Shown: positions 33,522 through 53,353, numbered from the stretch's first letter. The stretch: DNA of 64,000 nucleotides from Dehalococcoidia bacterium (GCA_963579135.1 CAUZFB010000001.1:51548-115547); one strand, 5' to 3'. The notes: a model not told the origin generated them from the letters alone. A program made the numbers and translations.

Positions 33522-33556
33522 AGTTCAGGACCTCGGCGGGTATGGCGGGCCAGATA

Positions 33557-33590
33557 GGCCAGTCGGCCAGTCGGCCAGTCGGCCAGTCGG
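33557..33590. repeat. tandem octamer repeat (GGCCAGTC)x4 plus GG
   Basis: Read directly: ggccagtc ggccagtc ggccagtc ggccagtc gg, in the divergent udg/apt spacer. Confidence 0.95.
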
Positions 33591-34526: not shown

Positions 34527-34532
34527 TCTCAA

Positions 34533-34817
34533 CAATGGCCGTGATGGAGATGAGTAGGCAGGTTCCCCGACGAACAGCGAACCGGAGTTGGTGCGAGTCC
34601 GGTGTGTCGGCCCTAGCCGAAGATCCCTCCTGAGCCGTCAGCCGAAACCCTGTTCTTTATCGTCTAGGAGAGGGGGAGTAGACCTGACCGGGGTGCCGCC
34701 CGTTACCAGTGGCGAGAGCGTGTTGGCGCTCTACAGAGTGCTCTCCGGCCGGCCGGAGGGAACGAGGGTGGTACCGCGGGTAATTCGTAACCCGTCCCTT
34801 TTGAGGGACGGTTTTTT
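34533..34817 (+). promoter_or_regulatory. T-box riboswitch leader (tRNA-sensing transcription attenuator)
   Basis: Stem I elements: GA/K-turn (GUGAUGGAG..CUCCUGAGCC), AGUA S-turn, AGCGA bulge, distal loop UUGGUGCGAG. The T-box sequence AGGGTGGTACCGCG is at 34765-34778. Terminator: CCGTCCCT-TTTG-AGGGACGG-TTTTTT at 34792-34817. Confidence 0.85.
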
Positions 34818-34869
34818 GTTGGTCATTTTTCGCCGCTAAATGCGGATGGTGAGTCGAAAAGAGGACACC

Positions 34870-36456
34870 ATGAGTGAATTTACGCTGTACGACACGACTC
34901 TGCGCGATGGTACACAGATGGAGGGGATCAGCCTGTCTGTGGAGGACAAACTGAACATAGCGGAGCGCTTGGATCAGCTGGGGGTGCATTTCATTGAGGG
35001 CGGCTGGCCAGGGTCGAACCCCAAAGACGAGGAGTTCTTCCAACGGGCGAAGGATCTGAAGCTGAGCAATGCGAAAATCGTTGCCTTCGGATCCACGAGG
35101 CGTGCGAATACGCGTCCCGAGGACGACCCGAATCTGCAGGCACTCGTTGACTCCGGCGTGACGGTGGTGACGCTGGTGGGCAAGGCGTCAGATGCGCAAG
35201 TGACGCAGGTACTGGAAACATCGCTGGAGGAGAACCTGGCGATGATCCGGGAGTCAATCGAGTACCTACGGTCGAAGGGGCTGCGGGTGATCTTCGACGC
35301 TGAGCACTTCTTCGACGGCTACGCTGCAAACCAGGAATATGCAATGGCATGCGTGAAGACGGCATCCGAGGCTGGCGCAGAGCAGGTGGTGTTGTGCGAT
35401 ACGAACGGCGGCACGATGCCGGTGGATGTGTTTGCGACGGTGAGCGCAGTGCGGGGTGCGGTGGACGGCGGTATCGGTATCCACTGCCACAACGATGCTG
35501 ATGTGGCGGTGGCGAACAGCATCGCAGCAGTGCAAGCGGGCGCGACACAGGTGCAGGGGACGATCAATGGCTACGGGGAACGCTGCGGCAATGCGAATCT
35601 GGTTTCGGTGATCGCGAATCTGAAGCTGAAATTGGGCATGGATGTGGTGAGCAACGAGCAACTGGGGCACCTGACAGAGGTGCACCGGTTCGTGGCGGAG
35701 CTGGCGAACATGCCACGCAGCCGGTACCAGCCTTACGTGGGCGACAGCGCATTCACGCATAAGGGGGGCCTGCATGCGTCGGCGACGGCGAAGATGGATA
35801 TGGCTTACCAACACATCGAGCCGGGGCTCGTGGGCAATGCGAAGCGCGTTGTGATTTCGGAGATGGCGGGTCGCGCGAACATCGCAATTAAGCTTGAGGA
35901 GCAGGGTCTAACGGCAGATGTGCCGAAAGAACGATTGGGTGATCTTCTGACGCTGGTGAAAACACAGGAGGCGCATGGGTTCCAGTACGAGGGCGCTGAG
36001 GCGTCGTTCCAATTGCTGGTCCGGCGTACGCTGCCGAATTACTCCCGCCCATTCGATCTGGTCGACTACATGGTGGTGATGGAGAAGCGCCGCCGCCAGA
36101 ACAGTTTGCTGGATAACGGAGATGAGACGTTGTGCGAGGCGATGGTGAAGGTGCGCGTGAACGGCGAGGTGATGCATACGGTGGCCGAGGGCAACGGGCC
36201 GGTCAACGCCATCGACGCTGCGCTGCGCAAGGGCCTGATTCAGGCGTACCCGCAGGTGGCGAACGTACAACTAACGGACTACAAGGTCCGCGTGGTGGAG
36301 CAGGGACCGGATGGCACGGGCGCTGTGGTGCGCGTGCTGGTGGAGTCGACGGACGGCGAGCACTACTGGAATACGGTGGGGGCCTCCACGAACATCATCG
36401 AGGCTTCATGGCAGGCGCTCACGGACAGCCTGGAGTACGCGCTTCTCGCGAAGTAA
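34870..36456 (+). CDS. citramalate synthase-type LeuA family enzyme (2-isopropylmalate/citramalate synthase)
   Basis: MSEFTLYDTTLRDGTQMEGISLSVEDKLNIAERLDQLGVHFIEGGWPGSNPKD, HCHND, and a C-terminal LeuA-dimer-like domain. The approximately 529 aa length matches the CimA-type subfamily. Confidence 0.8.
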   Translation: MSEFTLYDTTLRDGTQMEGISLSVEDKLNIAERLDQLGVHFIEGGWPGSNPKDEEFFQRAKDLKLSNAKIVAFGSTRRANTRPEDDPNLQALVDSGVTVVTLVGKASDAQVTQVLETSLEENLAMIRESIEYLRSKGLRVIFDAEHFFDGYAANQEYAMACVKTASEAGAEQVVLCDTNGGTMPVDVFATVSAVRGAVDGGIGIHCHNDADVAVANSIAAVQAGATQVQGTINGYGERCGNANLVSVIANLKLKLGMDVVSNEQLGHLTEVHRFVAELANMPRSRYQPYVGDSAFTHKGGLHASATAKMDMAYQHIEPGLVGNAKRVVISEMAGRANIAIKLEEQGLTADVPKERLGDLLTLVKTQEAHGFQYEGAEASFQLLVRRTLPNYSRPFDLVDYMVVMEKRRRQNSLLDNGDETLCEAMVKVRVNGEVMHTVAEGNGPVNAIDAALRKGLIQAYPQVANVQLTDYKVRVVEQGPDGTGAVVRVLVESTDGEHYWNTVGASTNIIEASWQALTDSLEYALLAK

Positions 36457-36468
36457 GCTATACCAACC

Positions 36469-36903: not shown

Positions 36904-38177
36904 GCCATGTCGAGGGCGAGGGCAGACCAGCCGAACGATCGGGCGCCCATGCCCTGCCCGCTGAGAGGATTGTAGTACTCGTGAAGGCCTTGCTTGGCGA
37001 CAAGCTCAACTGTGCGAGCGGCGAGGTGCTCGGCGTTTTCACTGTGCCCGTGGGCGCGCATGCCACGCCAGACGAGCCAGTTCGTGTTGATCCAAGTGGG
37101 ACCCCGCCAGATGAGCTTATCCTCGCGGGGGTCGAAAGCGCTTTCGGTGGCTGCGACAGAGGGGATGGGATAGCGCAGCCAGAATTTGTCGCGGCGGAGA
37201 ATGTGCCTGTCGACTATCTCGTCGACGATGTCCTGAGGGATATTGGGCATAACGAGGGGTACGAGCGCGCCGACGGTGAGGGGCTGCACGCGACGCTCGT
37301 CAGCACCGATGAGGCTCATGAAGCCGCCATTGGCGCGATCGAGCATCTTATCGAGCATGGACGAAGTGACCTTGGCCGCCATGGCGTCGTAGGCGACGGC
37401 TGATCGGCTGTTGCCCTGACTGCGGTGCATGCGGGCCATGGTGGCGAGAGAGTCGGCGTAAACGCCGTTGACCAGCGCTTCCTTGACGTAGAAGCGGCGC
37501 TTGCTGAGCATCTTGGCGCTGTTGTAGCCGGCGAGCCAGTTCAGGACGTCGATGCGCCGATTCTTGAACCCTGCCCTCCAACGACCGGGGGCGCTCTTGA
37601 ACCCGAGGACTTCGTCAAAGACGGGGGACTGGTCGGTGCCAGCTTCGTAAGGTGAAACGATGACGATGAGCCCGTCGTCGTCGGGGACACGGTTGGTCGA
37701 GAGCCACTCGTGGTAGGTGTCGAGGGCGTGCATGAAGCGCGGCGGGATGGCGACGTCGCCGATGATCTCGCCGACGCGCTCGACTGCTTGGGCCAGGACT
37801 GGGGGCTGGATTAGGCCAGAACTGCGCAAGCGTTCGCCAGGAACGGCTTGGCCGTAGGCCCAGGGGTGGGCGATGCCGCCAAGCTTGGAACCCCAGAAGT
37901 GCATGTGCCCGATGAATCCATCGTCACGCTGAGTGGCGACGAGGGTCTCAAGCTCGCGTAGGGCTTGGTCGGGGTCGACGTGGGCAATGGCGATGGCATG
38001 GAAGCAGGAGTCCCAGAACCATTGCCACTGGTACTCGTGGGGGGAAGGGCAGAGGTAGGAATAGTCGAAGTTGAGGCTGTGGTCGTGGCCTTGCTTTAGG
38101 TTGCTCTTGGCCATGCGCTTTACGAGGGCGGTGATCTGCTGGACGTCTGGGCTTTCCATGAGAAAAGTATGGCGCAA
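36894..38177 (-). CDS. (alpha/alpha)6-barrel glycoside hydrolase, GH63 / MGH1-like
   Basis: YQWQWFWDSCFHAIA..., ..SPYEAGTDQSP.., ..GPTWINTNWLVWRG.. patterns typical of GH63-like glucosidases. Confidence 0.6.
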   Translation of the reverse strand: MRHTFLMESPDVQQITALVKRMAKSNLKQGHDHSLNFDYSYLCPSPHEYQWQWFWDSCFHAIAIAHVDPDQALRELETLVATQRDDGFIGHMHFWGSKLGGIAHPWAYGQAVPGERLRSSGLIQPPVLAQAVERVGEIIGDVAIPPRFMHALDTYHEWLSTNRVPDDDGLIVIVSPYEAGTDQSPVFDEVLGFKSAPGRWRAGFKNRRIDVLNWLAGYNSAKMLSKRRFYVKEALVNGVYADSLATMARMHRSQGNSRSAVAYDAMAAKVTSSMLDKMLDRANGGFMSLIGADERRVQPLTVGALVPLVMPNIPQDIVDEIVDRHILRRDKFWLRYPIPSVAATESAFDPREDKLIWRGPTWINTNWLVWRGMRAHGHSENAEHLAARTVELVAKQGLHEYYNPLSGQGMGARSFGWSALALDMAYA

Positions 38178-38229
38178 CGAACGGACGAGAAGGAATGGCT
38201 TCTCGTTCCCGGTAGATGCCGGTCTCCGT

Positions 38230-38359
38230 GGAGGCTCAATCGTTGATCTCTTGGCCGAGGGAGTGTGAAAGACCCGTTCAACTGCGCTACGCTCCGCTCA
38301 GGAACAGGGGGCGCGGCGGGAAGTGAAGGTCGCCCGGCGCTCCGGGAAGGCGTGCGCGC
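38230..38359 (+). repeat. copy A of the dispersed mosaic repeat family
   Basis: ..CCCGTTCAACTGCGCTACGCTCCGCTCAGGAACAGGGGGCG.. followed by ..CGCCCGGCGCTCCGGGAAGG. Confidence 0.7.
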
Positions 38360-38596
38360 AGGGGTAGCAGCCGAGATGAACGTCATCGGGATAGCGACGC
38401 CGTTCACGGAATACTCACCACAGCGTGAGCTTCCGGTTCCCGCCGAGTGGGTTGCGCGCGACCCGGCATAGCTCAGCGACGTGATGCGACGGAAAATCAA
38501 AGAACACAACGCGACCGCTCACCCAGGCCAGGCGACGTAGGGGACGCACACGGGAGGTCGTCTCGCAAGGCGCTGGGGCGTGGCCCCTGGCGCGCG

Positions 38597-39406
38597 TTAG
38601 TACTTGCCTTGGCTGGCCCAGGCAGCGCCGTCGACAGGAAGGCCGATGCCGCTGATGAATCCTGCTTCGTCGGAGTGGAGGAAGAGGGCCGCGTAGGCGA
38701 CGTCCCAGGCCGTGCCCATGCGGTTGCCGAGGGGGACACGGGCGTTGCGCATGGCGATAAGCTCTTCGCGTGGCATGCCTGCGGCGACGCGGGCTTCGAT
38801 GGCCATGGGTGTGTTCATGAGGCCGGGGAGGATGGCGTTGACTCGAACGCCGCCGTCGGCGTGAGCCATAGCGAGGTTCTGGGTGAGGGCGATGACGGCG
38901 GTCTTCATGGTCTTGTAGCCGATGTAGGGGTAGGCCTCAAGGACGGCGAGCGATGAAATGTTGACGATGGAGCCGCCCCCCTGCCCTCGCATGATGGGGA
39001 TGGCGTGTTTGCAGGCCATCCAGTGGCTCTTGAGGTTCACGGCGAAGCTGCGGTCGAAGGCTTCCTCTGTCATATCGACGGCTACAGCGTCCCCGAGGGC
39101 AACGCTGGCGCCGACGTTGTTGTGGAGGATGTCGAGGGAGCCGTAACGGCTCGCGATGTCGGTGATGAGCGCCTTCACAGAGATCTCGTCGGTGGCGTCA
39201 ATCTGCACGGCGGCGGAGTCGTTTCCTTCTATACTGATGAGATCGACGGTATCCTGTGCTGACTCGAGGTCACGATCGGCGACGATGACGCGGGCGCCTT
39301 CTCGTGCGAGTGCGATGGCGGTGGCCCTGCCGTTGCCGATGGTTTCGCCGGGGGTCTGCCCGCCGCCTACGATGATCGCGACCTTGCCTTCAACGCGTCC
39401 TGCCAT
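38597..39406 (-). CDS. SDR family oxidoreductase
   Basis: GKVAIIVGGGQTPGETIGNG, NNVG, and a Y..K catalytic pair. The start was trimmed to the ATG at 39406 because the long upstream ORF extension runs through a repeat. Confidence 0.85.
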   Translation of the reverse strand: MAGRVEGKVAIIVGGGQTPGETIGNGRATAIALAREGARVIVADRDLESAQDTVDLISIEGNDSAAVQIDATDEISVKALITDIASRYGSLDILHNNVGASVALGDAVAVDMTEEAFDRSFAVNLKSHWMACKHAIPIMRGQGGGSIVNISSLAVLEAYPYIGYKTMKTAVIALTQNLAMAHADGGVRVNAILPGLMNTPMAIEARVAAGMPREELIAMRNARVPLGNRMGTAWDVAYAALFLHSDEAGFISGIGLPVDGAAWASQGKY

Positions 39407-39578
39407 GATGTTTGTCTCCGTGGGGCTTGGTTGGGGAAAGGATAAAAGATTGCGGGCCGCTGTGGGTGGGTGGTGGCGGCGGACGTGGGTCGCCGGGCTG
39501 TTAGACGCTCGCCAGCTCTGGGCTGGGGGAGAGACAGGACGGTCGTGGTTGAATCTTATGGCCTGGACCCCCCCCCCC

Positions 39579-39755
39579 GGGCTCGGTGGAGGCCCGGTTG
39601 TGGATGAGATCGGTGCGAGCCCTCGGATCTCTTGGACTTCGCCCGCTGGGACTAAGGGTCGCTCGGCACTCCGGAAATTGGGAAGGGTGAGAGGTCCCTT
39701 CGCGTGACTTAAGGGCACGCTCTTCGACTAAGCTGCGCTCAGGAAAGAGGGGCGG
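39579..39755 (+). repeat. copy B of the dispersed mosaic repeat family (full length)
   Basis: GGGCTCGGTGGAGGCCCGGTTGTGGATG...GCGAGCCCTCGGATCTC...TCGCTCGGCACTCCGG...GGGAAGGGTGAGAGGTCCCTTCG...GCTGCGCTCAGGAAAGAGGGG. Confidence 0.75.
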
Positions 39756-39791
39756 CGTGCCGGGCGCGAAGTGTCGATGGTACGCGTCAGT

Positions 39792-40571
39792 TCAGTACTT
39801 GTGGATGAAGTCGAGGACCATGCGGTTCCAGGTCTCCGGCTGCTCCCAATGAGCGGCGTGCCCGGCTTCTGGTACGAGGGCGAACTTGCTGTTGGGGATG
39901 CGGCTAGCCATGGTCTGGATCATGGGCGGTGCGGCGTAGAGATCAGCTCCGCTGGCCAGTATGAGGGTTGGTGTCTCTATGGTTTCGAGGAGATTGAGCG
40001 TGAAGTCGTTGCGCATCTTCTCACGCTGGGCTGTGGCGTGCCGGCTGGCCTCCTCGATCTGGACCCAGCGGTCAACGCCAGCCGAGTGCGCCGTACGGTA
40101 GCTCGGCCCAAGCTCGCGGAACCATGCCGGCAGCGATTGAAACTCAGGAATCGTTTCGTATCTGCTTCCGCTGCGCGCGTATTCCGGATCCCGACGCAGG
40201 ATGCCGCCGCCCCAATGAGAGATAACCAGGCTGCGGAGGGCCTCTGGATACGTCAATGTGTAGTCGAGCGCTGCCGAACCTCCCGCGGCGGTGCTTACGA
40301 GGTGTAGGCAGGCGAGGCCAAGGTGGTGGACAAGGGAGTGAAGGTCATCGGCGGCGTAGGTGGTCAGCTGCTCCGCTGAGGTACTTTTGGACTGGCCCCA
40401 GCCTCGACGATCGTAGGTGATACAGCGATAGCCAGCCTGAGTGAAGGCGGGGAGTTGCTGCTCCCATGCTTGGGTGTTGCCGGAGGTGGCGTGCAGGAAG
40501 ACGACGGGTGTGTTGTTGCCGCCAGTGTCCTGGTACCAAAGGTCTGCGCCGGGAAGGTGTAGGTGGGGCAT
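39792..40571 (-). CDS. alpha/beta hydrolase
   Basis: VVFLHATSGNTQAWEQQLP...; a nucleophile elbow region; ..GHAAHWEQPE.. near the C-terminus. Confidence 0.85.
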   Translation of the reverse strand: MPHLHLPGADLWYQDTGGNNTPVVFLHATSGNTQAWEQQLPAFTQAGYRCITYDRRGWGQSKSTSAEQLTTYAADDLHSLVHHLGLACLHLVSTAAGGSAALDYTLTYPEALRSLVISHWGGGILRRDPEYARSGSRYETIPEFQSLPAWFRELGPSYRTAHSAGVDRWVQIEEASRHATAQREKMRNDFTLNLLETIETPTLILASGADLYAAPPMIQTMASRIPNSKFALVPEAGHAAHWEQPETWNRMVLDFIHKY

Positions 40572-40778
40572 GTTGGCTTTCGGAGAGGGGGGTAGGGAAC
40601 GTTAAGGCGAACGGACTTGCAAGAACACTTCGCATCGTATCGTGTCATACGTGCCAAATCGTGCCATTACCAAGTTCTGGTATATTTCCGGCGCCCGGCC
40701 GATATAGATGCTATTAGAGACGTTGAGCAGCATTTGCCGCCGCTCGCATCAAAGGATACGCACCTGCTGATGATCTGA

Positions 40779-40913
40779 TTGGGGACCTTCACTCTTATCG
40801 CAATAGCCATCCTTCTATCGGCGGGTTCTACATCTGCCACGGCCGACGCAGGTGTCTCCATCGCAAGCTCTCACGCCTGCGGCTTGACCGCGACCGGCGG
40901 CGTGCAGTGTTAG
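40779..40913 (+). pseudogene. 44-codon remnant: signal peptide plus the first RCC1-like blade, then a stop
   Basis: TTG-initiated MGTFTLIAIAILLSAGSTSATADAGVSIASSHACGLTATGGVQC*. The SxHxCxLTxxGxVxC text resembles an RCC1/ATS1 repeat. Too short to appear in the ORF track. Confidence 0.35.
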
Positions 40914-40950
40914 TGTGATTCGAGTCGATTGCGGGTACATTAAGCCAGTG

Positions 40951-43128
40951 ATGGCTAATTCGAGTACCAAGGCAATAATCGATTCCCACGTTGCAACGAT
41001 TGCAGCGGAGCTGGGCGTGCGCGCCGGGCAGGTGCGGGCAACGGTGGAGATGCTGGATGGCGGGGCGACGATGCCGTTCATCGCTCGCTATCGCAAGGAA
41101 GCGACGGGCGAGCTAGACGAGGTGGCGGTGGGGTCGGTACGGGACAGGATCGCCCAATTACGCGAACTGGATGAGCGTTGTCAGGCGATAGTGGCGTCGC
41201 TGGAGGAGCGAGGGCTGCTCACGGATGAACTGTGCGAGCAGCTCATGGCGGCGCGGTCGATGGCGAAGCTTGAGGACGTGTACCTACCGTTCCGGCCAAA
41301 GCGCCGGACGAGGGCGACAATCGCGCGGGAGCGCGGGCTGGAGCCCCTGTCGGAGTTACTGTGGGCACAGGAGCCGGGCACGGATGTAAACGCTGCGGCG
41401 CGGGCGTACGTGGATCCTGAGAATCGAGTGGCGGACGAGGCGGCTGCGCTGGCGGGGGCGCGCGACATCATGGCAGAGTGGGTGAGTGAGGATGCGTGGG
41501 CCCGAGCGACGTCGCGCGATCTGTTCGCGCGACGGGGTCTGCTCCGCTCGCAGGTGGCGAAGGGCAAGCAGGAGGAGGGGGCAAAGTTTCGCGATTACTT
41601 TGACGCCGAAGAGCTTGCGTGGAAGGCCCCGTCACACCGGGTGCTTGCGATGTTCCGCGGGGAACAAGAGGGCATGCTCTCGGTGCAGTTGGAACCGTCA
41701 GAGGCGGAGGTGGTCGAAGCGCTGGGTCGGCATTTTCTGGTGGAGGGCGCCGGCGGCCCGGACGCGAATGAGGCGTCGGGACAGGTGGAGACGGCGCTGA
41801 TGGATGGCTACAAGCGGTTGCTGGGGCCGTCGATGGAGACGGAGATGCGGAACGCGCTGAAGGAGCGCGCGGATGCGACGGCGATAGCGGTGTTCGCGGA
41901 GAACCTGCGCAAGCTGTTGCTGGCGGCGCCGCTGGGCCAGAAGGCGATCCTGGCGATTGACCCGGGGTTTCGGACGGGGTGCAAGGTGGTTTGCCTTAAT
42001 CGGCAAGGGGCGCTGCTGCACTCGGACACGGTGTACCTGCACCTGGGTGCGGAGCGCGAGGCGATAGAGGCCCAAAAGATCGTTGAGATGGCGAAGCGCT
42101 ACAAGATCCAGGCGATCGCGATCGGCAATGGGACGGCGGGGCGCGAGACCGAGGCTGTGGTACGCAAGCTCAAGTTCCAGTCACCCGTGGCGATCGTGAT
42201 GGTCAACGAGAGCGGAGCGTCGGTGTACTCAGCGTCGGCGGTGGCACGCGAGGAGTTCCCAGATCACGATCTGACGGTACGCGGCGCGGTGTCGATTGGG
42301 AGGCGTTTGATGGACCCGCTGGCGGAGCTGGTAAAGATTGATGCGAAGGCAATCGGCGTGGGGCAATACCAACACGATGTTGACCAGACGGCGCTGGTAC
42401 AGCGCCTGCACGACGTGGTGGTGAGCTGCGTGAATCTGGTAGGCGTCGATCTGAATACGGCAAGCCCGAAGCTGCTGGCGTTCGTGTCCGGTCTGGGGCC
42501 CTCGCTGGCGAAGTCGATTGTGCAATACCGTGACAAGCAGGGCGCGTTCAAGTCGCGCGCTGATCTCCTGCAGGTGCCGCGCTTGGGGCCGAAGGCGTAC
42601 GAGCAAGCGGCGGGGTTTCTCCGTATACCAGGGAGAGCGAATCCGCTCGATTGCAGCGGTGTGCACCCGGAGAGCTATGGAGTGGTGCGTCAGATGGCGA
42701 AGGACCTAGGGTGCGACGTGTCGCAGCTGATGAGCGACGAGGACTCACGGACGCTGGTGGACGTTGCGGACTACGTCACAGAGTCGGTGGGCCTGCCAAC
42801 GCTGGCGGACATCATGGCTGAGCTTGCGAAACCCGGTCGCGATCCACGCGATGCGTTCGCAGCCTTCAGCTTTTCAAACGAGGTGCACTCGATCGAGGAC
42901 CTGCGGCAGGGGATGGAACTCCCTGGCGTAGTGACGAACGTTACGGCGTTCGGCGCGTTCGTGGATGTGGGAGTGCACGGCGATGGGCTGGTGCACATCA
43001 GCAGGCTGGCGAACCGATTCGTGAGCGACCCGAACGACGTTGTGTCAGTGGGCCAGCAGGTATCGGTGACAGTGTTGGAGATCGACCTGGAACGCAGGCG
43101 AGTGTCGCTGTCGATGGTGGGCGTTTAA
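40951..43128 (+). CDS. tex: Tex-like transcription accessory protein (S1 RNA-binding domain)
   Basis: ATMPFIARYRKEATG, a YqgF/RNase H-like core, HhH motifs and a C-terminal S1 domain (GVVTNVTAFGAFVDVG). Confidence 0.9.
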   Translation: MANSSTKAIIDSHVATIAAELGVRAGQVRATVEMLDGGATMPFIARYRKEATGELDEVAVGSVRDRIAQLRELDERCQAIVASLEERGLLTDELCEQLMAARSMAKLEDVYLPFRPKRRTRATIARERGLEPLSELLWAQEPGTDVNAAARAYVDPENRVADEAAALAGARDIMAEWVSEDAWARATSRDLFARRGLLRSQVAKGKQEEGAKFRDYFDAEELAWKAPSHRVLAMFRGEQEGMLSVQLEPSEAEVVEALGRHFLVEGAGGPDANEASGQVETALMDGYKRLLGPSMETEMRNALKERADATAIAVFAENLRKLLLAAPLGQKAILAIDPGFRTGCKVVCLNRQGALLHSDTVYLHLGAEREAIEAQKIVEMAKRYKIQAIAIGNGTAGRETEAVVRKLKFQSPVAIVMVNESGASVYSASAVAREEFPDHDLTVRGAVSIGRRLMDPLAELVKIDAKAIGVGQYQHDVDQTALVQRLHDVVVSCVNLVGVDLNTASPKLLAFVSGLGPSLAKSIVQYRDKQGAFKSRADLLQVPRLGPKAYEQAAGFLRIPGRANPLDCSGVHPESYGVVRQMAKDLGCDVSQLMSDEDSRTLVDVADYVTESVGLPTLADIMAELAKPGRDPRDAFAAFSFSNEVHSIEDLRQGMELPGVVTNVTAFGAFVDVGVHGDGLVHISRLANRFVSDPNDVVSVGQQVSVTVLEIDLERRRVSLSMVGV

Positions 43129-43516
43129 GCGGAGTTCCGGGGGACGTGGGACAAAGAGAAGGCAGATGGATGTTGGTTTCGCCCCGGCTGTTTAAGTTAT
43201 TCAGTTCCCTGCTAGCCGTTGGCTCCGTTCCTACCGGGGGTCGTACCCGGATGGCGCGCCCTCAGTTGAGAGGTTCTTGCTTGCGTGTAGGTCGTTTTCA
43301 CGGAGCTTCCGAGGGTTTCCTGTTGCCCGATCGCTCGATGCTCATGCGCACCGGAGGCGGGCTGCCAGCGGATAGTCCCACTGGTGGTTCAGGATGTCTA
43401 TTTTTTCCCTGACCATATGGCGCCTCCTAACACTTCTGGGTCTTCGTACTGTCGTGGGAGGGTACTCCGGCTCCCTTGCGACAGAAGGCGCTTACGTAAG
43501 GGTCACATAGGCTCTG

Positions 43517-44320
43517 CTACTTGGTGAGGACGGCGACGACGGGGACGAGGAGGCCTCGCTGGGCAGAGGCGAGGACGTTTTTCATGAGGACGCCAAAGTC
43601 GGGGAAACGCATGATGACGCTGAAGTTGAGACTGGGGCTGGAAAAGGTGGGGGGCCGGGACGGGCCAGCACGTGATTCTTCCCAGGCAGTGATGGTGAAC
43701 CCCGCGTCAGTGGTGGTTCTCTGGAAATCGGCGGAAGTGACGAGGAAGTCGATGTCGGCAGAGGGTGCCCAGGGAACGGGGTAGTCGCGCGCACCGGGGT
43801 TGTCCTCCATGACAGCCTGCATCACGAGCGTGCCGCCAGGCTTCAGGATGCGGTGGGCCTCCTTGAGTGCGGCGGCCTTGTCCTCGATGTTCATGAGGAC
43901 GTTCTGGCTCCAGACGACGTCGAATGCGTCGCCGTCGAGCCCGGTGGTGGCGATGTCACCAACAGCGCAGGAGACCTTGTCGGCCAGGCCCAAGAGGACA
44001 TTAAGGGGGCCAGCCGCTTCGATAAAGTCATCGGCGAGATCCATGCCGACGACGTTGCAGCCGTAGGTCTTGGCGAGGAAGCGGGCTGGCCCGCCGATGC
44101 CACACCCCGCGTCGAAAACTTGCGAATCCGAGTTGATCTCGCTGCGTTCGGCGAGGGCTTTGGTGGCAGGTAAGCCACCGGTGTGGAACTGGTCGATGGG
44201 CGCGAGGTCTTCGATGGTGGCGGTCGCTGGGTCGATGTCAGCTTGGCGGAGCGCGGTGAGGATACGGCGGTAGATATCGTCGTGCCCGTAGTGCGCTTTG
44301 ATTTCGGGGCTGAGGTCCAC
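43517..44320 (-). CDS. class I SAM-dependent methyltransferase
   Basis: VFDAGCGIGGPARFLA and LKPGGTLV. The start was trimmed to the GTG at 44320 to avoid overlap with the upstream gene. Confidence 0.75.
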   Translation of the reverse strand: MDLSPEIKAHYGHDDIYRRILTALRQADIDPATATIEDLAPIDQFHTGGLPATKALAERSEINSDSQVFDAGCGIGGPARFLAKTYGCNVVGMDLADDFIEAAGPLNVLLGLADKVSCAVGDIATTGLDGDAFDVVWSQNVLMNIEDKAAALKEAHRILKPGGTLVMQAVMEDNPGARDYPVPWAPSADIDFLVTSADFQRTTTDAGFTITAWEESRAGPSRPPTFSSPSLNFSVIMRFPDFGVLMKNVLASAQRGLLVPVVAVLTK

Positions 44321-44417
44321 CGCTGTTCCTTTGCCACTTAGATAGCCACTGACAGGAGGCGGGCGCCGGATAGTTTTCGGCGCCCGCTCTCGTGATGATT
44401 CGCGCTTCCAGGCGACG

Positions 44418-45359
44418 CTAGCTGAGGCCATGCGTGCTAGGGGCGAAGAGGTCATCGATGGACGGAATGGCGCTGATGACGCCTTGGTCGAGAGAGTACT
44501 CAGCGATCATCTCGAGGGCTTTGCGGTTGGACTCGATGCCGATGGGCAGCGGGTCGCCTCCAACGATGTCGGCGTTGCGCTTGTCAGCCTCTTCGTCACG
44601 CGCCTGGGGGCCCTGCGCGGCGAGGCGTTGGAGGTAGAGGGATTTGGATTGCTTGTAGGCGGCGAAGAACGATTCGGCGATATCAGGGTTCGCTGCGAGG
44701 ACTTCGTCACGCATGACGATGCAGTTGTTGATGGGGAAGACGCTGGTTTTCGCGAACCAATCGGCGGTGGCCTGTTTGGCGTTGGCAATGAGGGGCTTGA
44801 CGTCGGGTGAATTCACGTCCTGGACGCCGATGCCAGCGTCGATCTCACCGGAGGTGATGAGATCCGGGAGCTTGTCGCCCTTGCGGGATACAGTGTTGGA
44901 GGGATTGGGGATCTCGTCGAGGTGCTCGATGTCGGTGAGAACCCAGGTGACCTTGGTGTGATCGACGCCGTACTCGGATGCGAGCAGGCCACGTGCCCAG
45001 ACGCCCGCGGTGCCTGCGTAGGCGCGGACTCCGATCTTCTTGCCTTCGAGGTCTTTGGGCATGGCGACGCCTGAGTTGACGTTGTAGGTGACGGCGCCCT
45101 GAGGAAAGGCGCGCATGGGAAAGATGGGGATGGCTGTGAAGGCTTGTCCCAGCTCTTTCAGCTGGAGGTAGGTGACGATGGCCATCTCGGAGATGTCGAA
45201 TTCGAGATCCTGGATCATGCGGTCGAAGAGCTTTGGCATGGGGGAAACTTCGACGATCTCAAGGGTGGCGCCCTGGAGCTTGACGATGCCTTCCTTGAGG
45301 GCAGCGTACTGTGACCGGGCTACGATGCCGAGCTTGATAGTTCTGTGAGCGGTGGTCAT
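44418..45359 (-). CDS. periplasmic-binding-protein-fold protein (NMT1/PhnD-like), cytoplasmic (no signal peptide)
   Basis: 313 aa with SBP-like alternation (DLEGKKIGVRAYAGTAGVWARGLL). Precise function not assignable by eye. Confidence 0.5.
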   Translation of the reverse strand: MTTAHRTIKLGIVARSQYAALKEGIVKLQGATLEIVEVSPMPKLFDRMIQDLEFDISEMAIVTYLQLKELGQAFTAIPIFPMRAFPQGAVTYNVNSGVAMPKDLEGKKIGVRAYAGTAGVWARGLLASEYGVDHTKVTWVLTDIEHLDEIPNPSNTVSRKGDKLPDLITSGEIDAGIGVQDVNSPDVKPLIANAKQATADWFAKTSVFPINNCIVMRDEVLAANPDIAESFFAAYKQSKSLYLQRLAAQGPQARDEEADKRNADIVGGDPLPIGIESNRKALEMIAEYSLDQGVISAIPSIDDLFAPSTHGLS

Positions 45360-45557
45360 GACGTTTGCCTCTCAGATGTCGATGCATTGCTAAGCTGCAA
45401 GGCATTATCTACGGATTTGGCCACCGGGCCAACGGGCGCTTGCCGTGGGGGGTGGGTCTTGCTGCGCGGTGGGTTTGACTTATCATCGTGCGGAGGCGCG
45501 GTGCGCCGAAGTCCGGCGGTTGCACGAGCAATCGCACGTCAAAGGAGATCAAGCGCT

Positions 45558-46751
45558 ATGGCGAACCCAAAGGAAGTTGTGATCATCAATGGCATGAGGA
45601 CGCCCGTGGGCCGGTTCGGCGGGGCGTTCAAGGATATGCGTACATCTGATCTCGGGGCAATCGCCATCAGGGCGGCGCTGGAGCGTTCAGGGGTGTCTCC
45701 AGAGGCGGTTGATGAGGTCATCATGGGCAATGTGCTGCAGGCGGCTGAGACAGGCTACACGGCTCGTCGAGCGATGCTCGCAGCGGGTATTCCGGATCAC
45801 GTGCCGGCGATGACAATCAATCGGGCGTGCTCGTCAGGGCTGGAGTCGATTAATCTAGCGGTGCAGGCCATCCTGACGGGGGAGTCCGAGGTGGTGGTCG
45901 CTGGCGGCATGGACAGCATGAGCCAGGCGCCGTACCTGATGACGGGCAATCGCTTCGAAGGTCCGCGCATGGGCGATGTGACGATGACCGACAGCTTGGT
46001 GATGGGCCTGAGCTGTCCTATCTACGACTATCACATGGGCGTGACGGCGGAGAACGTGGCGGAGCGCTTTGAGGTCACGCGGGCGTCGCAAGACGAGCTT
46101 GCGGTGATGAGCCACGAGCGCGCCGTGGCCGCGCAAGAGGCAGGTTATTTCGATTCGCAGATCGCGCCGGTCTCCGTACCGCAACGCCGAGGCGATGCGA
46201 TGGTAGTGACCCGCGATGAGCACCCGAGGCCGGGCACGACCATGGAGGGGTTGGCCAAGCTGAAGCCGGTGTTCAAGGACGGCGGTACGGTGACGGCTGG
46301 TAACTCGGCTGGCATCAACGATGCTGCCGCTGCGGTGGTGGTGATGTCGGCAGAGCGCGCCGCTGCGGAGGGCCTGACGCCACGGTTGCGCTGGGTGGGC
46401 CGCGGTGTTTCGGGCGTAGATCCATCGATCATGGGCATCGGGCCGGTGCCGTCGACCCGCAAGGTGCTGGAGAAGACGGGTATGTCCATCAATGATCTGG
46501 ATCAGATTGAGCTGAACGAGGCGTTCGCTTCGCAGGCGCTGTATGTGATCCGCGAGCTAGGAATGGACATAGAGAAGACGAATGTGAATGGGTCGGGTAT
46601 CTCGTTGGGTCATCCCGTTGGCGCGACGGGGGCGATTATGACGGTGAAGCTGATGGAGGAGTTGACCCGCCGCGATCAGCAGCATGGGTTGGTGACGATG
46701 TGCGTGGGCGGCGGCCAAGGAGTTTCCACTATCTTCGAGCGCATCAACTAG
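45558..46751 (+). CDS. acetyl-CoA C-acetyltransferase (thiolase II)
   Basis: INRACSSGLESI (Cys nucleophile), NGSGISLGHPVGATG, CVGGGQG. The start was trimmed to MANPKEVVII with an AAAGGAG SD. Confidence 0.92.
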   Translation: MANPKEVVIINGMRTPVGRFGGAFKDMRTSDLGAIAIRAALERSGVSPEAVDEVIMGNVLQAAETGYTARRAMLAAGIPDHVPAMTINRACSSGLESINLAVQAILTGESEVVVAGGMDSMSQAPYLMTGNRFEGPRMGDVTMTDSLVMGLSCPIYDYHMGVTAENVAERFEVTRASQDELAVMSHERAVAAQEAGYFDSQIAPVSVPQRRGDAMVVTRDEHPRPGTTMEGLAKLKPVFKDGGTVTAGNSAGINDAAAAVVVMSAERAAAEGLTPRLRWVGRGVSGVDPSIMGIGPVPSTRKVLEKTGMSINDLDQIELNEAFASQALYVIRELGMDIEKTNVNGSGISLGHPVGATGAIMTVKLMEELTRRDQQHGLVTMCVGGGQGVSTIFERIN

Positions 46752-46809
46752 CAAGGCGCGCCCTGCACCCACGTGCGACGTTCGGCGGGGACGGCTGACG
46801 AGAGTGTCG

Positions 46810-47066
46810 GGGTTCTACGCGCGGACGTTCGAGGGGCATGATGCGGAGGGCGGGGAAGAGGGGCTGGCTCAATGGGTGTTAAGCCTTCAGAGTGCCTCGT
46901 GATCGAGGACCGCTACGAGGGCGTGAGCGCGGCTCTAGCGGCAGGGATGCTGGCGCTGGCCTACACGCCGAACGGGGATGTCGACAAGCTCAGGTCGCTG
47001 GGTGTGGGGCTGATCAATCATCACGACCGATTACCTGAGACGGTGGGGTCCTTGCGGATCTGCTAG
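46810..47066 (+). pseudogene. HAD-IA hydrolase C-terminal remnant
   Basis: Only the last 60 aa or so of a HAD fold are present (GVKPSECLVIEDRYEGVSAALAAGMLAL). Upstream HAD-like text lies in a different frame, and the N-terminal DxD motif region is absent. Confidence 0.5.
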
Positions 47067-47134
47067 GAGAGAACCCTCTCCTCAGTCCTTAATTCTTTCC
47101 CTCAGGAGAGGAGGGCCGAGCGGGAACCGTGGCG

Positions 47135-47225
47135 GGGGATGTGAGATCTTGCCTTCGAGCGGAACATCGGCAACGCCGAAGGGTTCTTCGGCTCCGCTAG
47201 CGCTTCGCTCAAGAAGCAGGGAGAT
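47135..47225 (+). repeat. copy F (diverged) of the dispersed mosaic repeat family
   Basis: ..GCCTTCGAGCGG...GGGTTCTTCGGCTCCGCTAGCGCTTCGCTCAAGAAGCAGGGAG aligns loosely with the Y module. Confidence 0.4.
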
Positions 47226-47323
47226 TCTTCACGGACGTCGTCTCGTGTCGGAATGACGTTAGGAGCGGCTTCGCGGTTCCGGCGGCTTTCATCCGCTCGT
47301 ACATACTGGCGCTCTACTAAAGC

Positions 47324-48121
47324 TTAGAGAGCGAAGGTGCGCTCGGCGGTGCTAGGGAGTACCGCAGCTTGCTGATTTGTGCTGTAGCGGCTTAGGTAGG
47401 CCTTGAGGTACGAGAAGACGTTGGAGTAGCCCTCGCGCCTGGCCGAGAGCGGCCAGTCGGTAGCGAGCATGAGACGGTGGGCGCCGAAGGTTTGCATGGC
47501 GCGGTCGATGTGGTCCGGCGCTTGCTCGACGTCGAACGTGGGGTTTCGGAGGGGGGAGGGGCGCGGTATGAGCTCCCCCAGGCCGTGAATTTTCATGGTG
47601 ACGTTGGGGAAGCGAGCGAACTCCAGCAGTTTTTCATAAGCCTCCTCCTGCTGATCCTCACGCAGGCGCAGGAATCCATAGTGCTCGAGGATGAGCTGTA
47701 GATCCGGTAGCTCTTCGATAAGCGCTTGGAAGGACGGCGCGCTTATTTCGAGGGCGTTCGATGGGCTGCTGACGGGCATGCCGAGCTCGGCAGCCTTGCG
47801 CCAGAGTGCCACCGGGTCACTGCGATTGGCGACGAACGCAGCACCTGGCGGGGCGAACAGGCGCACGGAACCGACACCTCGAGCGTGCCAGGCAGCCAGC
47901 GTTTCAGGGGCATCAGGCAACGTGGGATCCACCATGCCCATGACGGCGAAACGGCCTAAGTGCTGTTCAGCACATGCAAGCAGATATGAGTTGTCGTACT
48001 CGCCTCCGTGCTGGACGAGGACGGCTTTGTCGACGCCGTAGGTGTCCATCTGGAAGAGCAGCATTTCGACCGGTTCGAGCCAGGAGAGGGACGCGTGGCA
48101 GTGGGCATCGACGATGGCCAT
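47324..48121 (-). CDS. amidohydrolase-2 family metal-dependent hydrolase (TIM barrel)
   Basis: MAIVDAHCH..., ..LATDWP.. motifs. Confidence 0.75.
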   Translation of the reverse strand: MAIVDAHCHASLSWLEPVEMLLFQMDTYGVDKAVLVQHGGEYDNSYLLACAEQHLGRFAVMGMVDPTLPDAPETLAAWHARGVGSVRLFAPPGAAFVANRSDPVALWRKAAELGMPVSSPSNALEISAPSFQALIEELPDLQLILEHYGFLRLREDQQEEAYEKLLEFARFPNVTMKIHGLGELIPRPSPLRNPTFDVEQAPDHIDRAMQTFGAHRLMLATDWPLSARREGYSNVFSYLKAYLSRYSTNQQAAVLPSTAERTFAL

Positions 48122-48126
48122 GACGC

Positions 48127-49596
48127 CTATCCTAGGAAGCGGCGGAGGCGGGCTGCTTCTTCAATATAATGGGGCACGTTGGCGTGTCCGTCACGCTGGA
48201 GACCGGCCCAAATAGCACTGGTAAGCCCTTCGTGGATGCGGTCGATCGAACGACCGTGGCGCATGACGACATCGGAGTAGGCGTCACCGAGCAGGCTGCG
48301 GACGCGGGACTCGTTAGCGTACGTGGCGGCGACAGCGAGGTCGTCGTCAAGGCTAGGGTAGATCTCGCGCACGAACGCGAGATCATCGTCGTCGAGGGCA
48401 GTCATGCCGAGGATCTCGGGCGGGACGCCGATGGAGTAGAGCGACGCAGCGAAGGCGATAGCGCGAGGCAGCGTGACATCGCTGGAGCCGGCGAGGGATC
48501 GTCCATAGCCGAACAGGCCAACGTGCAACTTGCGGTCGCGTCTACGCGGCACGCAGGCGGAAGCTTCCGTGATGAAGGGCACGAGCTTCCGCACGCACTG
48601 CTGGTACTCTGCGGCGAACTTATCGATGATTAGGCGAGCGCGCGCTTCATCGATGGGCTTGGCGGGCGCTTGCTCATGCGCGAGGATCTGCTGGATGCCG
48701 TTACGTACATCGTCAGGCGCGTAGTCGTACTTGAAGGCGGACTGGACGGTGAACGTTTGGATGCTCGGGTACTCGGTGAACGCCCTATCCAGGTTCAGGG
48801 GAGTGAGATGTCCCCGGAACGGGACGGAGCCCGCACCGATGATGGGGTACATGGGCACGCCCAGCTCAACTCCAAGGCGATCTAGCCGCTGCAGGGAGAC
48901 CTGGAGCATGAGCTCCGCGCCGACCATGCCATAGTTGAGCGCGGGGTCGCTGCGGGCGAGGAACACGCGCTGGTACGGCAGGTCGCGCCCGCGGCAGTAA
49001 TCGCGCACGATGGTGTCGGCGGTGAGCATCTGCTCAAGGTCCTCGATTAGGGGAATCATGCGGATCTGCTTGGGGTTGAACTCGCCGATCCAATCTTTGA
49101 CACGGCGGCCGCCGGACATGGCCTGGGTTTCCTGTCCAACGACGAATCGTTCGTAATATTCAGCGATGAGCGCAACCTCATCGCCAGTGGTGGTCATGGG
49201 TAGGATAACCTCTTGGATAGGTGCATCCATGGGGTCGCCGTAGAAGCCGCGGGCGACATCCCACGCTGAGGGGATGCTATGAAGCGCCTCCACCACAGAC
49301 TTGCGCATATCAATCTCGATGGCCGGATTGGGCACGCGCAAGGTGATGGTGCAGTCGGTGCCGAGGCGCCGCTCGTTGCGGAAAAAGTCAGGGTAGTTGG
49401 AGAGAAGTTTCTGGACGACCTGTCCATCGGCGTCCTTGCCCTCGGAATCCCACATCTGCTCATCGCAGCCCATGCCGAAGACATCCACGGCTTCGACGAT
49501 TTCTCCCTCGCCCTTGATGACGCCGTTGACAGCGAAGGGCGGCGGCGATGCGTTGTCGGGATGCTGAGTGCTCATGCACTTGGGAATGAGCGGCAT
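48127..49596 (-). CDS. ppcA: archaeal-type phosphoenolpyruvate carboxylase (PepcA family)
   Basis: MSTQHPDN, EQMWDSEGKD, LLSNYPDFF, VILPMTT, VFLARSDPALNYG, PFRGHL, QSAFKYDY, PRRRDRKLHVGLFGYGR, C-terminal IRRFLG. About 489 aa, not the roughly 900-aa bacterial Ppc. Confidence 0.88.
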   Translation of the reverse strand: MPLIPKCMSTQHPDNASPPPFAVNGVIKGEGEIVEAVDVFGMGCDEQMWDSEGKDADGQVVQKLLSNYPDFFRNERRLGTDCTITLRVPNPAIEIDMRKSVVEALHSIPSAWDVARGFYGDPMDAPIQEVILPMTTTGDEVALIAEYYERFVVGQETQAMSGGRRVKDWIGEFNPKQIRMIPLIEDLEQMLTADTIVRDYCRGRDLPYQRVFLARSDPALNYGMVGAELMLQVSLQRLDRLGVELGVPMYPIIGAGSVPFRGHLTPLNLDRAFTEYPSIQTFTVQSAFKYDYAPDDVRNGIQQILAHEQAPAKPIDEARARLIIDKFAAEYQQCVRKLVPFITEASACVPRRRDRKLHVGLFGYGRSLAGSSDVTLPRAIAFAASLYSIGVPPEILGMTALDDDDLAFVREIYPSLDDDLAVAATYANESRVRSLLGDAYSDVVMRHGRSIDRIHEGLTSAIWAGLQRDGHANVPHYIEEAARLRRFLG

Positions 49597-49668
49597 GGCG
49601 TCTGCTCCAAGGGGGCTGATAGAGGCATGATACGGCGGGAATGGGGATGACGCATAACCATTTTACTG

Positions 49669-49719
49669 GCAAACCAGTTTGCAACAAAACTTGACACCCT
49701 GTTTGCTGCGGACTAAGTT
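49669..49719 (+). promoter_or_regulatory. parA promoter with operator-like repeats
   Basis: GCAAAC-CA-GTTTGC inverted repeat (49669-49682), TTGACA (49691-49696), a third GTTTGC (49701-49706) inside the 17-nt spacer, and TAAGTT (49714-49719). Confidence 0.5.
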
Positions 49720-49806
49720 ATGGGTCGTCCAGAGTCGAACCCAGGCGTGCTAGCCGGGTATGCCAGTCATGTAACGAGGAGGGTACCTCCACGAGGGCAC
49801 GAGTTT

Positions 49807-50595
49807 ATGGTAGGCGAATCACAGCCAACAATCATAGCGGTCGCGAACCAAAAAGGTGGGGTCGCAAAGACCACCACGTCAGTCAACCTAACGGCGCTTC
49901 TGGCGGCAGCGGGCAAGCGCGTATTGCTAGTGGACATGGATCCCCAGGGCGGCTGTGCCGTGTGCCTGGGAATGGACACGACGACGATGGAACGATCGAT
50001 CTACGATGCGCTGGTGAAGCAGGACGTGGGGATCGCCGATGTGGTGGTGCCTACGGCGTTCGCTTTCGATCTGGCGCCGGCGAATATCGATCTGGCGGGC
50101 GCTGAGATCGAACTGAAGCAGGCGCTGGCCGCGGAAACGGTGCTGCAACGCAAGCTGAAACCGATGCTCGATCGCTACGACTACGTAGTAATAGATACGC
50201 CGCCTTCGTTGGGCATCCTGACAGTGAATAGCCTGACGGCGGCCGACAAGGTGCTCATTCCTATTTCAGCCGAGTACATGGCGCTGCGCGGTCTGCGTAT
50301 GCTGCTGGACACTCTGGAGAACGTGCGCGAGGTGACGAACCCGGGCCTGAACATCATGGGAATCCTGGCGACGCGCTACGATGGGCGAACGATCAATAGC
50401 CGAGAGGTTTACGCGTATCTCCGCGAGTTCTGCGAGCGCGAGGGGATCCACCTCTTCCCGCAAGTCATCAAGCAATCTGTCCGGTTCGCTGAAGCGCCCG
50501 GATATCAGACACCGGTGGTTCTTTGGCGCAAGGATCTGGATGGAGCGAAGCAGTACCAGAAGGTCGCGGAGGAGGTGATTGATGGCAAAGTCTAA
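49807..50595 (+). CDS. parA: ParA/Soj-family ATPase
   Basis: IIAVANQKGGVAKTTT deviant Walker A, VVIDTPPSLG. 262 aa with no N-terminal HTH domain. Confidence 0.85.
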   Translation: MVGESQPTIIAVANQKGGVAKTTTSVNLTALLAAAGKRVLLVDMDPQGGCAVCLGMDTTTMERSIYDALVKQDVGIADVVVPTAFAFDLAPANIDLAGAEIELKQALAAETVLQRKLKPMLDRYDYVVIDTPPSLGILTVNSLTAADKVLIPISAEYMALRGLRMLLDTLENVREVTNPGLNIMGILATRYDGRTINSREVYAYLREFCEREGIHLFPQVIKQSVRFAEAPGYQTPVVLWRKDLDGAKQYQKVAEEVIDGKV

Positions 50596-50920
50596 GCGTC
50601 CAGCGTTCGTATTCCCAGAGCTGGAAAGCCGGGGACGACGTACAATTCTCCGTTCCACGGAAGAGGTGTCTGCCGAATTGGACGCGCTGCACCAGGCCGA
50701 GGAGGAACCCAAGGAGCGAGTGAAGGTGACGTACCGGTTCCAGCCTGAGGCGGTGGAGGCGGTAGAGGATATACGCCGCATCCTTCGCCGACAGTATGGG
50801 GTCCGAAAGGTGAACCGCGAGGATATCGCGCAGGCAGCGGTGCTTGAGGCGCTGCGTGACTTGGAGAGGAACGGCGCTTCAAGTTACTTGGCCCGCGAAT
50901 TTGGCGAAGCTGGAAGCTAA
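50582..50920 (+). CDS. small basic/acidic partner protein of ParA (possible ribbon-helix-helix, ParG-like)
   Basis: 112 aa, overlapping the parA stop by 14 nt. Basic N-terminus MAKSKRPAFVF. The central KVTYRFQPEAVEAVEDIRRILRR fits a strand-helix-helix pattern. No ParB/HTH domain is recognisable. Confidence 0.45.
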   Translation: MAKSKRPAFVFPELESRGRRTILRSTEEVSAELDALHQAEEEPKERVKVTYRFQPEAVEAVEDIRRILRRQYGVRKVNREDIAQAAVLEALRDLERNGASSYLAREFGEAGS

Positions 50921-50934
50921 CCCCCGGATGCCCC

Positions 50935-51113
50935 GGACTCGGCGGAGGATCGAGCGCGCATGAGGTCGGGGCGAGCTCTCGAATCTCTTGGCTTCGCCGC
51001 TGGGGCTGAAGGTTGCTCGGCGCTCCGGGGAAGGGCACTAAGAGAGTTCATTGGCTTGGAGGGACCTGATGGATTCCCTTCGAGTGACTCAGGACAGGCT
51101 CGCGGGCAGCGCC
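50935..51113 (+). repeat. copy C of the dispersed mosaic repeat family (full length)
   Basis: GGACTCGGCGGAGG...GCGAGCTCTCGAATCTCTTGG...TTGCTCGGCGCTCCGGGGAAGGG...TTCCCTTCGAGTGACTCAGGACAGGCTCGCGGG. Confidence 0.7.
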
Positions 51114-51233
51114 TGGTGCCAGAGTGACGTTAATCGCAACGGATATTGCCCCGCAGCGGCATGTGGTGTGGGGCACCCTTGCCTAGGGGTACTCCGGCTT
51201 CGCGGTCGCAAACAACGTTCATCGAAATTACAG

Positions 51234-52160: not shown

Positions 52161-52210
52161 GATTTTTCTCTTTTGCGCTGCGCAGATTGGCCACTTCTAG
52201 GATCCGGCGT

Positions 52211-53134: not shown

Positions 53135-53189
53135 GCGTGTCCTCCTGGGATTGCGATCGGTGGGGTTATATCACGTCTCAAGATTCTAC

Positions 53190-53338: not shown

Positions 53339-53353
53339 CTCCAGGGAGACGCC

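Follow-up and report, generated by a model that had tools for sequence, protein, structure and literature searches.

Scattered through the spacers of the window, by which we mean the whole 64,000-nucleotide stretch of DNA analysed, is a family of short repeats built from three modules, here termed 5′, X and Y. The copies are non-coding repeat DNA, neither genes nor structured RNAs. The reading we prefer, with a probability of about 0.5, is that the family is selfish DNA whose spread or retention proceeds through single-stranded DNA at the replication fork, with local tandem duplication as its means of expansion. The observations that form the basis for this are dispersal of copies to unrelated spacers, turnover between related genomes, changes in tandem copy number and a strand polarity that is independent of transcription.

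The window has a G+C content of 59-64%, a GC skew that is positive throughout, and carries a 16S rRNA gene, two tRNAs and one T-box leader. The names of homologues suggest that it derives from a marine, Dehalococcoidia/SAR202-like lineage of the Chloroflexota. A GH63-like protein encoded beside one copy of the repeat, copy A, has a 100% identical counterpart on JGI and ENA metagenome contigs, and its nearest named homologues, at 52-56% identity, carry the labels SAR202 cluster or Dehalococcoidia. Two sets of related sequences were informative. Nine loci (L029-L034 and L038-L040) represent the window's own population with approximately 99.98% identity. A metagenome scan with a pattern for module X provided a further 15 loci (L041-L055), 13 of which come from one assembly, ERZ890510, with genes that share 80-86% DNA identity with those of the window. 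The same type of scan with the 5′ module gave no match.

Six copies, A to F, had been read by eye in the initial annotation. All are real, lie within or close to the intervals originally proposed and are on the + strand. Self-BLAST of the six regions aligns B 39575-39674 with C 50931-51028 (80% identity over 100 nt, E=1.6e-13), B with E (80% over 51 nt, E=2.8e-4) and A with D (96% over 23 nt, E=1.5e-5), and every match between copies is in the + orientation. An independent repeat search placed module X in A, B, C and D and module Y in A, D and E. Module HMMs give matches in B, C and D for the 5′ module (3e-16 to 7e-12), in A, B, C and D for X (about 1e-8 to 1e-7) and in A, B, D, E and F for Y, and no other significant site over the 64 kb. 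Leave-one-out profiles regain each Y copy, the diverged F included, with E values between 5e-10 and 3e-5, and the best non-family site in the window with these profiles has an E value of at least 0.15. The copies and their parts, including a seventh copy (G) just past the right end of the window, are as follows.

Copy E, 17069-17156, + strand: a hairpin-like piece, a short arm and a long Y arm, with neither 5′ module nor X (E=1.6e-24 with the HY model, built from B and E; Y leave-one-out E=1.2e-6); neighbours are a terminator-like hairpin at 17025-17063 and the stop of a siderophore-interacting-protein gene (17161, - strand).
Copy A, rearranged, 38212-38356, + strand: a truncated 5′ module at approximately 38212-38262 (weak, E=0.72), Y at 38269-38318 (E=7e-7), then X at 38318-38354; neighbours are an SDR stop (38598) and the GH63-like gene start (38160), both on the - strand.
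Copy B, 39550-39760, + strand: unit HMM E=1.3e-21, Y regained at E=2.8e-5; neighbours are an alpha/beta-hydrolase stop (39792, - strand) and an SDR start (39407, - strand).
39550-39574, + strand: leader of copy B, common to copy G, with a C11 run at 39568-39578.
39575-39684, + strand: 5′ module and X unit of copy B.
39682-39701, + strand: small hairpin of copy B, GAAGGG/CCCTTC.
39696-39722 and 39723-39759, + strand: short Y-type arm and long Y arm, respectively, of copy B.
Copy F, diverged, 47152-47228, + strand: a palindrome, CCTTCGAGCG...CGCCGAAGGG, at 47152-47183, then a Y arm at 47184-47228 (a model that leaves F out regains it at E=9.5e-6); in a convergent spacer, upstream (+ strand) of the stop of an amidohydrolase gene (47324, - strand).
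Copy C, 50923-51113, + strand: unit at 50931-51038 (unit HMM E=2.6e-22), approximately 40 nt, then a short Y-type arm, CCCTTCGAGTGACTCAGGACAGGCTC, at 51075-51101, which alone is non-significant (E=0.21); downstream of an SDR stop (51234, - strand).
Copy D, 53186-53340, + strand: unit at 53186-53278 with an internal deletion of approximately 16 nt (unit HMM E=1.4e-11), a small hairpin and a Y arm at 53288-53338 (Y E=5e-10); neighbours are a D-Tyr-tRNA deacylase stop (53354, - strand) and an SDR start (53134, - strand).
Copy G, 15088-15198 of contig L038, + strand: 5′ module and X, approximately 3 kb past the right end of the window, in a divergent promoter region.

The genes adjacent to the copies encode SDRs, the GH63-like enzyme, hydrolases, D-Tyr-tRNA deacylase, a siderophore-interacting protein, MFS transporters, a luciferase-like monooxygenase and a cupin protein, a functionally unrelated set. 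The unrelated flanks agree with the original description of a dispersed, non-coding, modular or mosaic intergenic family and not a simple duplication, as does module order, Y preceding X in copy A. What did not survive was the claim that the family makes up most of the unassigned spacer DNA, since it covers 887 of approximately 10,556 intergenic bases (8%), in six of the 24 spacers of at least 150 nt. Two proposed fragments also fall away, that at 13841-13866 having E values of about 0.7-1.5 and that at 23946-23993 giving no match. Thus the observation itself is confirmed and its interpretation partly supported. Missed at that stage were the fact that the 5′ module and X are one unit of approximately 103 nt, the orientation that follows GC skew, and the membership of Y in a multi-phylum family.

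The terminator-like hairpin directly 5′ of copy E, AAACGCCCGCC...GGCGGGCGTTTTGTGTTGG, is itself repeated in the window, at 15295-15333 and 17025-17063 with 82% identity, and a similar hairpin is placed 5′ of the unit in L042.

The unit formed by the 5′ module and X is 102-105 nt long and lineage-specific, and its two parts always occur together in the 15 loci identified with the X pattern. The consensus begins with (C)CCCGGGCTCG, followed by approximately 24 variable nucleotides and then by two highly conserved blocks, GTCGGGGC(TC/GA)GCCCTCGGA and GGACTAAAGGTCGCTnGGCGCTCCGGGGA. The ends of the unit are CCCCGGGCTCG and CTCCGGGGA. Single units are all that the window contains. In the relatives, units are single or in head-to-tail arrays of two or three, the arrays being carried by L045, L050, L052 and L055; that in L045 is assigned by TRF a period of 136 with 2.7 copies and 95% matches. 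Some arrays are homogeneous, which indicates local duplication, and others join different subtypes.

Comparison of orthologous regions reveals turnover. L043 and L045 are orthologous and derive from different samples, and they display one unit against three and one unit against two. L042 is orthologous to the 16-21 kb section of the window and lacks copy E in the matching spacer; in the next spacer it carries a unit that is absent from the window's counterpart. A more distant relative (L035, 81% protein identity) retains just two X pieces, in tandem and upstream of its orthologue of the SDR gene, and no family pieces were found in L036 and L037. Unit-to-unit identity is 71-79% in the window genome, and these values give no sign of recent mobility there; in ERZ890510 the mean is 82% and the maximum 95%. 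Among the 99.98% identical contigs of the same species there is no presence/absence polymorphism, the copies being fixed, and variation is limited to one SNP and to poly-C length (C10, C11 and C14 at 39568). The latter occurs at the 5′ boundary of copy B and may be the result of homopolymer slippage or assembly noise.

Homology between the L043 and L045 contigs ends at the repeat array (approximately 1793 and 8018, respectively), which makes the array a synteny breakpoint. A second repeat of approximately 330-700 nt, taatcgcggctgat...ctcatttctgcccatttctgcccatttacctc, is joined to the 3′ side of units in the relative, at L047 4087-4419, L050 2081-2764, L053 188-524, L055 9270-10022 and L054 1296-1558. 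It is located in gene-poor stretches of 1.6-2.7 kb and is absent from the window.

All seven copies of the window genome are on the G-rich strand, presumably the leading strand. With the elements masked, element orientation and the sign of GC skew agree for every locus (14/14) and every cluster (19/19), with a binomial p of 6e-5 by locus when the window is counted once; L044 was excluded as it has essentially no skew. Some caution is appropriate in reading this value. The loci from relatives were chosen for carrying the element, L043 and L045 are orthologous and not independent, and L050 may be orthologous to an ERZ890510 locus. When such dependence is discounted approximately 12 loci are left, so the result is still strong. 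Replication direction is approximated here by GC skew; neither an origin nor a terminus was seen in the DNA.

The polarity does not follow the genes. Orientation of the element relative to its flanking genes is mixed, and gene strand and skew are uncorrelated in these loci. Antisense stop codons are frequently found next to the 3′ end of the element (no more than 40 nt away in at least 10 cases), and window copies B, D and E are among those near stops; in four cases the 5′ end abuts the stop codon of a sense gene. Some copies occupy divergent or tandem-sense spacers. The wider Y family is without polarity, 12 loci agreeing with the skew and 10 disagreeing. Orientation bias coupled to replication is an established signature of single-strand, or ‘peel and paste’, transposition of the IS200/IS605 type (PMC5027513).

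The polarity of the unit would be explained, we suggest, if its G-rich strand entered the lagging-strand template, or was kept there, in single-stranded form. HUH (Y1) enzymes handle IS200/IS605-type elements and REPs and, by analogy, the unit may be handled in the same way. Arrays would grow and shrink by local slippage or by unequal recombination or exchange, and spacers at the 3′ ends of genes would merely be places that tolerate insertion. In the window genome the family would be old and eroding into mosaics through deletions and rearrangement. Several points count against a selfish element. One is the lack of fresh presence/absence variation in the same-species contigs. Others are that neither a mobilising enzyme nor a target sequence nor a target duplication was found. 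With respect to the enzyme, tblastn over 261 kb with approximate IS200 TnpA and E. coli RAYT queries, a weak test, gave no match to an HUH/Y1 transposase better than E=0.5. The left flanks of units vary (AAGGG, AAATC, AGGGA, CTGCT, GAATT and others) and neither a conserved target sequence nor a consistent subterminal hairpin was seen at unit ends. Target-site duplications, which the initial annotation had put forward as something to look for, are absent at approximately 20 insertion sites, and there are no terminal inverted repeats beyond CCCCGG/CCGGGG, 6 nt in length and itself palindromic.

Several questions arise in weighing this reading. Is the unit a functional, replication-oriented DNA signal in the manner of Chi, KOPS/SRS or other architecture-imparting sequences? 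Is it part of a transcript? Could it be a conventional transposon, or have been carried along with neighbouring genes? In the first case a DNA-tracking machine with a role in recombination, segregation, priming or fork handling would read the unit, which would consequently be kept on one strand with respect to fork direction. The orientation perfectly coupled to GC skew is compatible with this, as are GGGNAGGG-like strings at the 3′ ends of several X modules (GGGAAGGG in B and C), the Chi-resembling TTGGTGG in the variable part of some units and a density in the window of roughly one copy per 10 kb. However, known polar signals are 5-9-mers that are also found inside genes, whereas the unit is approximately 103 nt and confined to spacers, and copies are present in just six of the 24 large spacers. 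DnaA-box, KOPS and Chi look-alikes in the modules were rejected since the strings vary across units. Copy number also varies at orthologous loci and copies are lost between relatives, which fits drift better than an essential signal. We regard a polar signal as unlikely. The third case, a classical double-strand MITE or flanks duplicated together with paralogous genes such as the SDR genes near A to D, is very improbable. Copy lengths of 90-210 nt are typical of MITEs, and four of the long copies do flank SDR genes, in the layouts [B]-SDR-[A] and [D]-SDR-SDR-[C]. Yet SDR1 and SDR3 share 34% protein identity while the adjacent repeats share 70-86% DNA identity, a comparison that led us to reject co-duplication, and other copies flank unrelated genes. 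The missing terminal inverted repeats and target-site duplications are also unfavourable to a MITE, and strict strand polarity would not be expected of cut-and-paste elements.

A transcribed element, whether cis-acting (a 3′-UTR stabiliser or attenuator, or a leader) or a small RNA such as a sponge, is also improbable. REP/BIME elements can affect mRNA decay and termination, and here the cases within 1-40 nt of stop codons, together with the position of copy E between a stop codon and the terminator-like hairpin, would suit such a role. Against it, orientation tracks the DNA strand and not gene direction, so that some transcripts would contain the sense form of the element and others the antisense form. 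At the gathering threshold no Rfam family overlaps the copies, and there is nothing at E<=10 over 38000-54000. Single copies fold with z values of about 0 against dinucleotide shuffles on both strands; for 24 units z averages +0.19 (+ strand) and -0.10 (- strand). The recurrent hairpins are of 4-6 bp only. The RNAalifold covariation term is about 0, and alignments of three and of 21 sequences reveal no covariation in excess of shuffles; in the latter, both the number of paired cells and the covariation are at the level of the shuffles. Of 21 units, 14 have the main candidate stem, GGGCTCG/CGAGCCC, disrupted by a GA to TC flip or its reverse. On these grounds a structured RNA was rejected. A small TGG(A)-CTTCG-(T)CCG hairpin displays three compensatory-looking variants, an anecdotal hint of some structural constraint. 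The GGAGG-N11-ATG motif conserved among the window units is missing from those of the relatives, and what follows it, 11-55 amino acids in differing frames, is not conserved, so a small ORF or leader peptide was discarded. The original remark that no consistent reading frame is shared holds, since the copies differ by frame-shifting indels; the unit lengths (102-105 nt) and the array period (136 nt) are not regularly divisible by three. A promoter or intrinsic terminator role was likewise dismissed, there being no consensus sites within the copies.

The layout of copies around the SDR genes also gave a cassette-like look. Integron attC-like boundaries were rejected because the copies are not palindromic and copy G is in a divergent promoter region. 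The two tandem SDR paralogues between copies D and C (51234-53134) share 67% protein identity, and the wider data do not support a cassette reading.

Module Y has a different distribution. A degenerate Y pattern of approximately 46 bits, scanned over one genome per species, matched 28 loci, with a chance expectation far below one. The hosts are Anaerolineae, Dehalococcoidia, Patescibacteria, Acidobacteriota, Sphingomonas, Lysobacteraceae, Thermodesulfobacteriota, Methylacidiphilales and others, and the Y-type element is found in at least eight phyla. Neither the 5′ module nor X was found in these Y-type loci, and the possibility that X derives from Y, as a diverged copy in direct or inverted orientation, was rejected on alignment scores no higher than those of shuffles. 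The motif has a period of five nucleotides, TTCGA CTNCG CTNCG CTNCG CTCAGG, with a conserved CC before it. An inverted partner, CCTGAGC...GTCGAAGG, is present within 160 nt for 13 of 29 motifs in a strict test, and more are seen by eye once short-form partners are included. The three window matches have no inverted partner. In the window Y is a solitary intergenic arm, usually 3′ of X, with a short-form arm directly upstream in B and E, and in C the short arm is alone.

In several genomes of other phyla (L003-L007 and L022) a long ORF reads in frame through the Y-type element. Pfam domains of a GT4 glycosyltransferase, a RecQ helicase and MnmA are present on both sides of the insert, the GT4 insert being at an identical site in two Anaerolineae genomes, and in two PMT_2-family proteins the sole Pfam match is N-terminal to the insert. 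Such in-frame copies inside genes of other phyla demonstrate that the wider family of Y is invasive. It is possible that a single selfish, palindromic element, with the Y arm, CCTTCGAC-(CTNCG)n-CTCAGGA, as one of its parts, is present in at least eight phyla, from Patescibacteria to Acidobacteriota and Proteobacteria. Rfam gave no match over 18 loci that carry the motif, and our literature search found no paper with Y-motif sequences or their peptide translations, nor with such repeats in SAR202.

How do these elements relate to known systems? The initial annotation likened them to BIME/REP elements, and as interspersed intergenic repeats the likeness stands; they are short, GC-rich, non-coding, multi-copy, confined to spacers, concentrated at the 3′ ends of genes and modular or mosaic. 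For the present units, processing as single strands by an HUH enzyme is suspected and would be another point in common. The defining features do not agree. REPs are imperfect-palindrome stem-loops of approximately 20-40 nt, with a GTAG (or CGTC) tag left unpaired at the end, and their clusters have units in alternating orientation. The present units are not stem-loops of that size and lack the terminal tag, GTAG being internal only and on the reverse strand of Y; their clusters are head-to-tail, never alternating, with orientation locked to GC skew. Genomes with REPs have a RAYT (TnpA-REP) gene, often flanked by REPs, and no such gene was seen in the 261 kb with the approximate query sequences.

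IS200/IS605-derived elements (PATEs) and REPINs resemble the unit in having no inverted terminal repeats and no target duplications. They possess a conserved 4-5-nt target 5′ of the left end and subterminal hairpins at both ends, unlike the present unit, for which neither a conserved target of that type nor consistent hairpins are evident. Tandem arrays such as those of the relatives are not typical of them, and no cognate TnpA was found for the units over the 261 kb with the approximate queries. A strong orientation bias with respect to replication is shared (PMC5027513), assessed here through GC skew as a proxy.

The unit also has parallels with the MIRUs of mycobacteria and BOX elements of pneumococci, intergenic units that form head-to-tail arrays with strain-variable copy number (VNTR), BOX being in addition modular. 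The likeness is in intergenic units of 40-100 nt and in head-to-tail arrays of variable copy number, here in the relatives with none in the window. MIRUs share the direction of their operon and contain small ORFs overlapping the operon's stop and start codons, whereas the present unit is oriented by DNA strand irrespective of the genes and has no conserved ORF. For the Y-type element the closest comparison in behaviour is with Rickettsia palindromic elements (RPEs), which are palindromic and selfish and occur both between genes and in frame inside intact protein-coding genes. The Y-type element is palindromic and in frame in GT4, RecQ, MnmA and PMT_2 genes. It differs in being distributed over at least eight phyla as opposed to one genus, and the window has single intergenic arms lacking the inverted partner. 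The CGTC REPs of Di Nocera et al. (2013) have 8-9-bp stems, 4-5-nt loops and no associated transposase (PMC3733652). A CGTC tag does precede the CCTGAGC arm of the Y-type element in four loci from other phyla (L014, L017, L018 and L024), whereas the window copies carry TGTT or CTTT at this position. The Y motif is absent from the text and supplements of that paper (PMC3733652).

Dispersed repeats are common and the existence of the present family alone would be ordinary. The orientation lock and the pan-phylum Y-type element, which differs little from phylum to phylum and is in frame within housekeeping genes, lift it above that level. The unit of approximately 103 nt may represent a repeat class with insertion or retention strictly coupled to the replication strand and without the end hallmarks of REP or IS200/IS605 elements. 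If so, it would point to an unknown single-strand mobilisation or annealing mechanism, or to a polar chromosomal function, in marine SAR202-like Chloroflexota. The lock, perfect in the loci examined, connects the biology of the replication fork with a non-coding repeat, and does so in a marine lineage that is uncultured and of ecological importance. If the Y-type element is what it appears to be, it would be an RPE-like phenomenon with a phylogenetic reach far wider than any described and, should it be confirmed and truly undescribed, there would be questions as to how it moves between phyla and what mobilises it. That the replication-strand-coupled unit class and the pan-phylum Y-type selfish element are both undescribed is a tentative proposition, which we consider doubtful. 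In practical terms such repeats interrupt assemblies, give rise to spurious ORFs and coincide with synteny breakpoints in metagenome-derived SAR202 genomes.

Other features of the window were noted. The T-box leader (34532-34802, 96.5 bits) is upstream of a leuA-like gene (HMGL/LeuA_dimer) at 34841-36457. The 16S rRNA gene (3390-4895, - strand) is flanked by a 31-nt inverted repeat with 90% complementarity, 3205-3235 and 4947-4977, which is probably an rRNA processing stem. The divergent spacer between a uracil-DNA glycosylase gene and a phosphoribosyltransferase gene contains an 8-nt tandem repeat, GGCCAGTC, of 5.2 copies at 33548-33590. Finally, a perfect, AT-rich inverted repeat of 27 nt with a 4-nt loop (54625-54682), which could be an operator or a terminator, is positioned approximately 60 nt upstream of an NAD-synthase-like ORF that starts at 54745.
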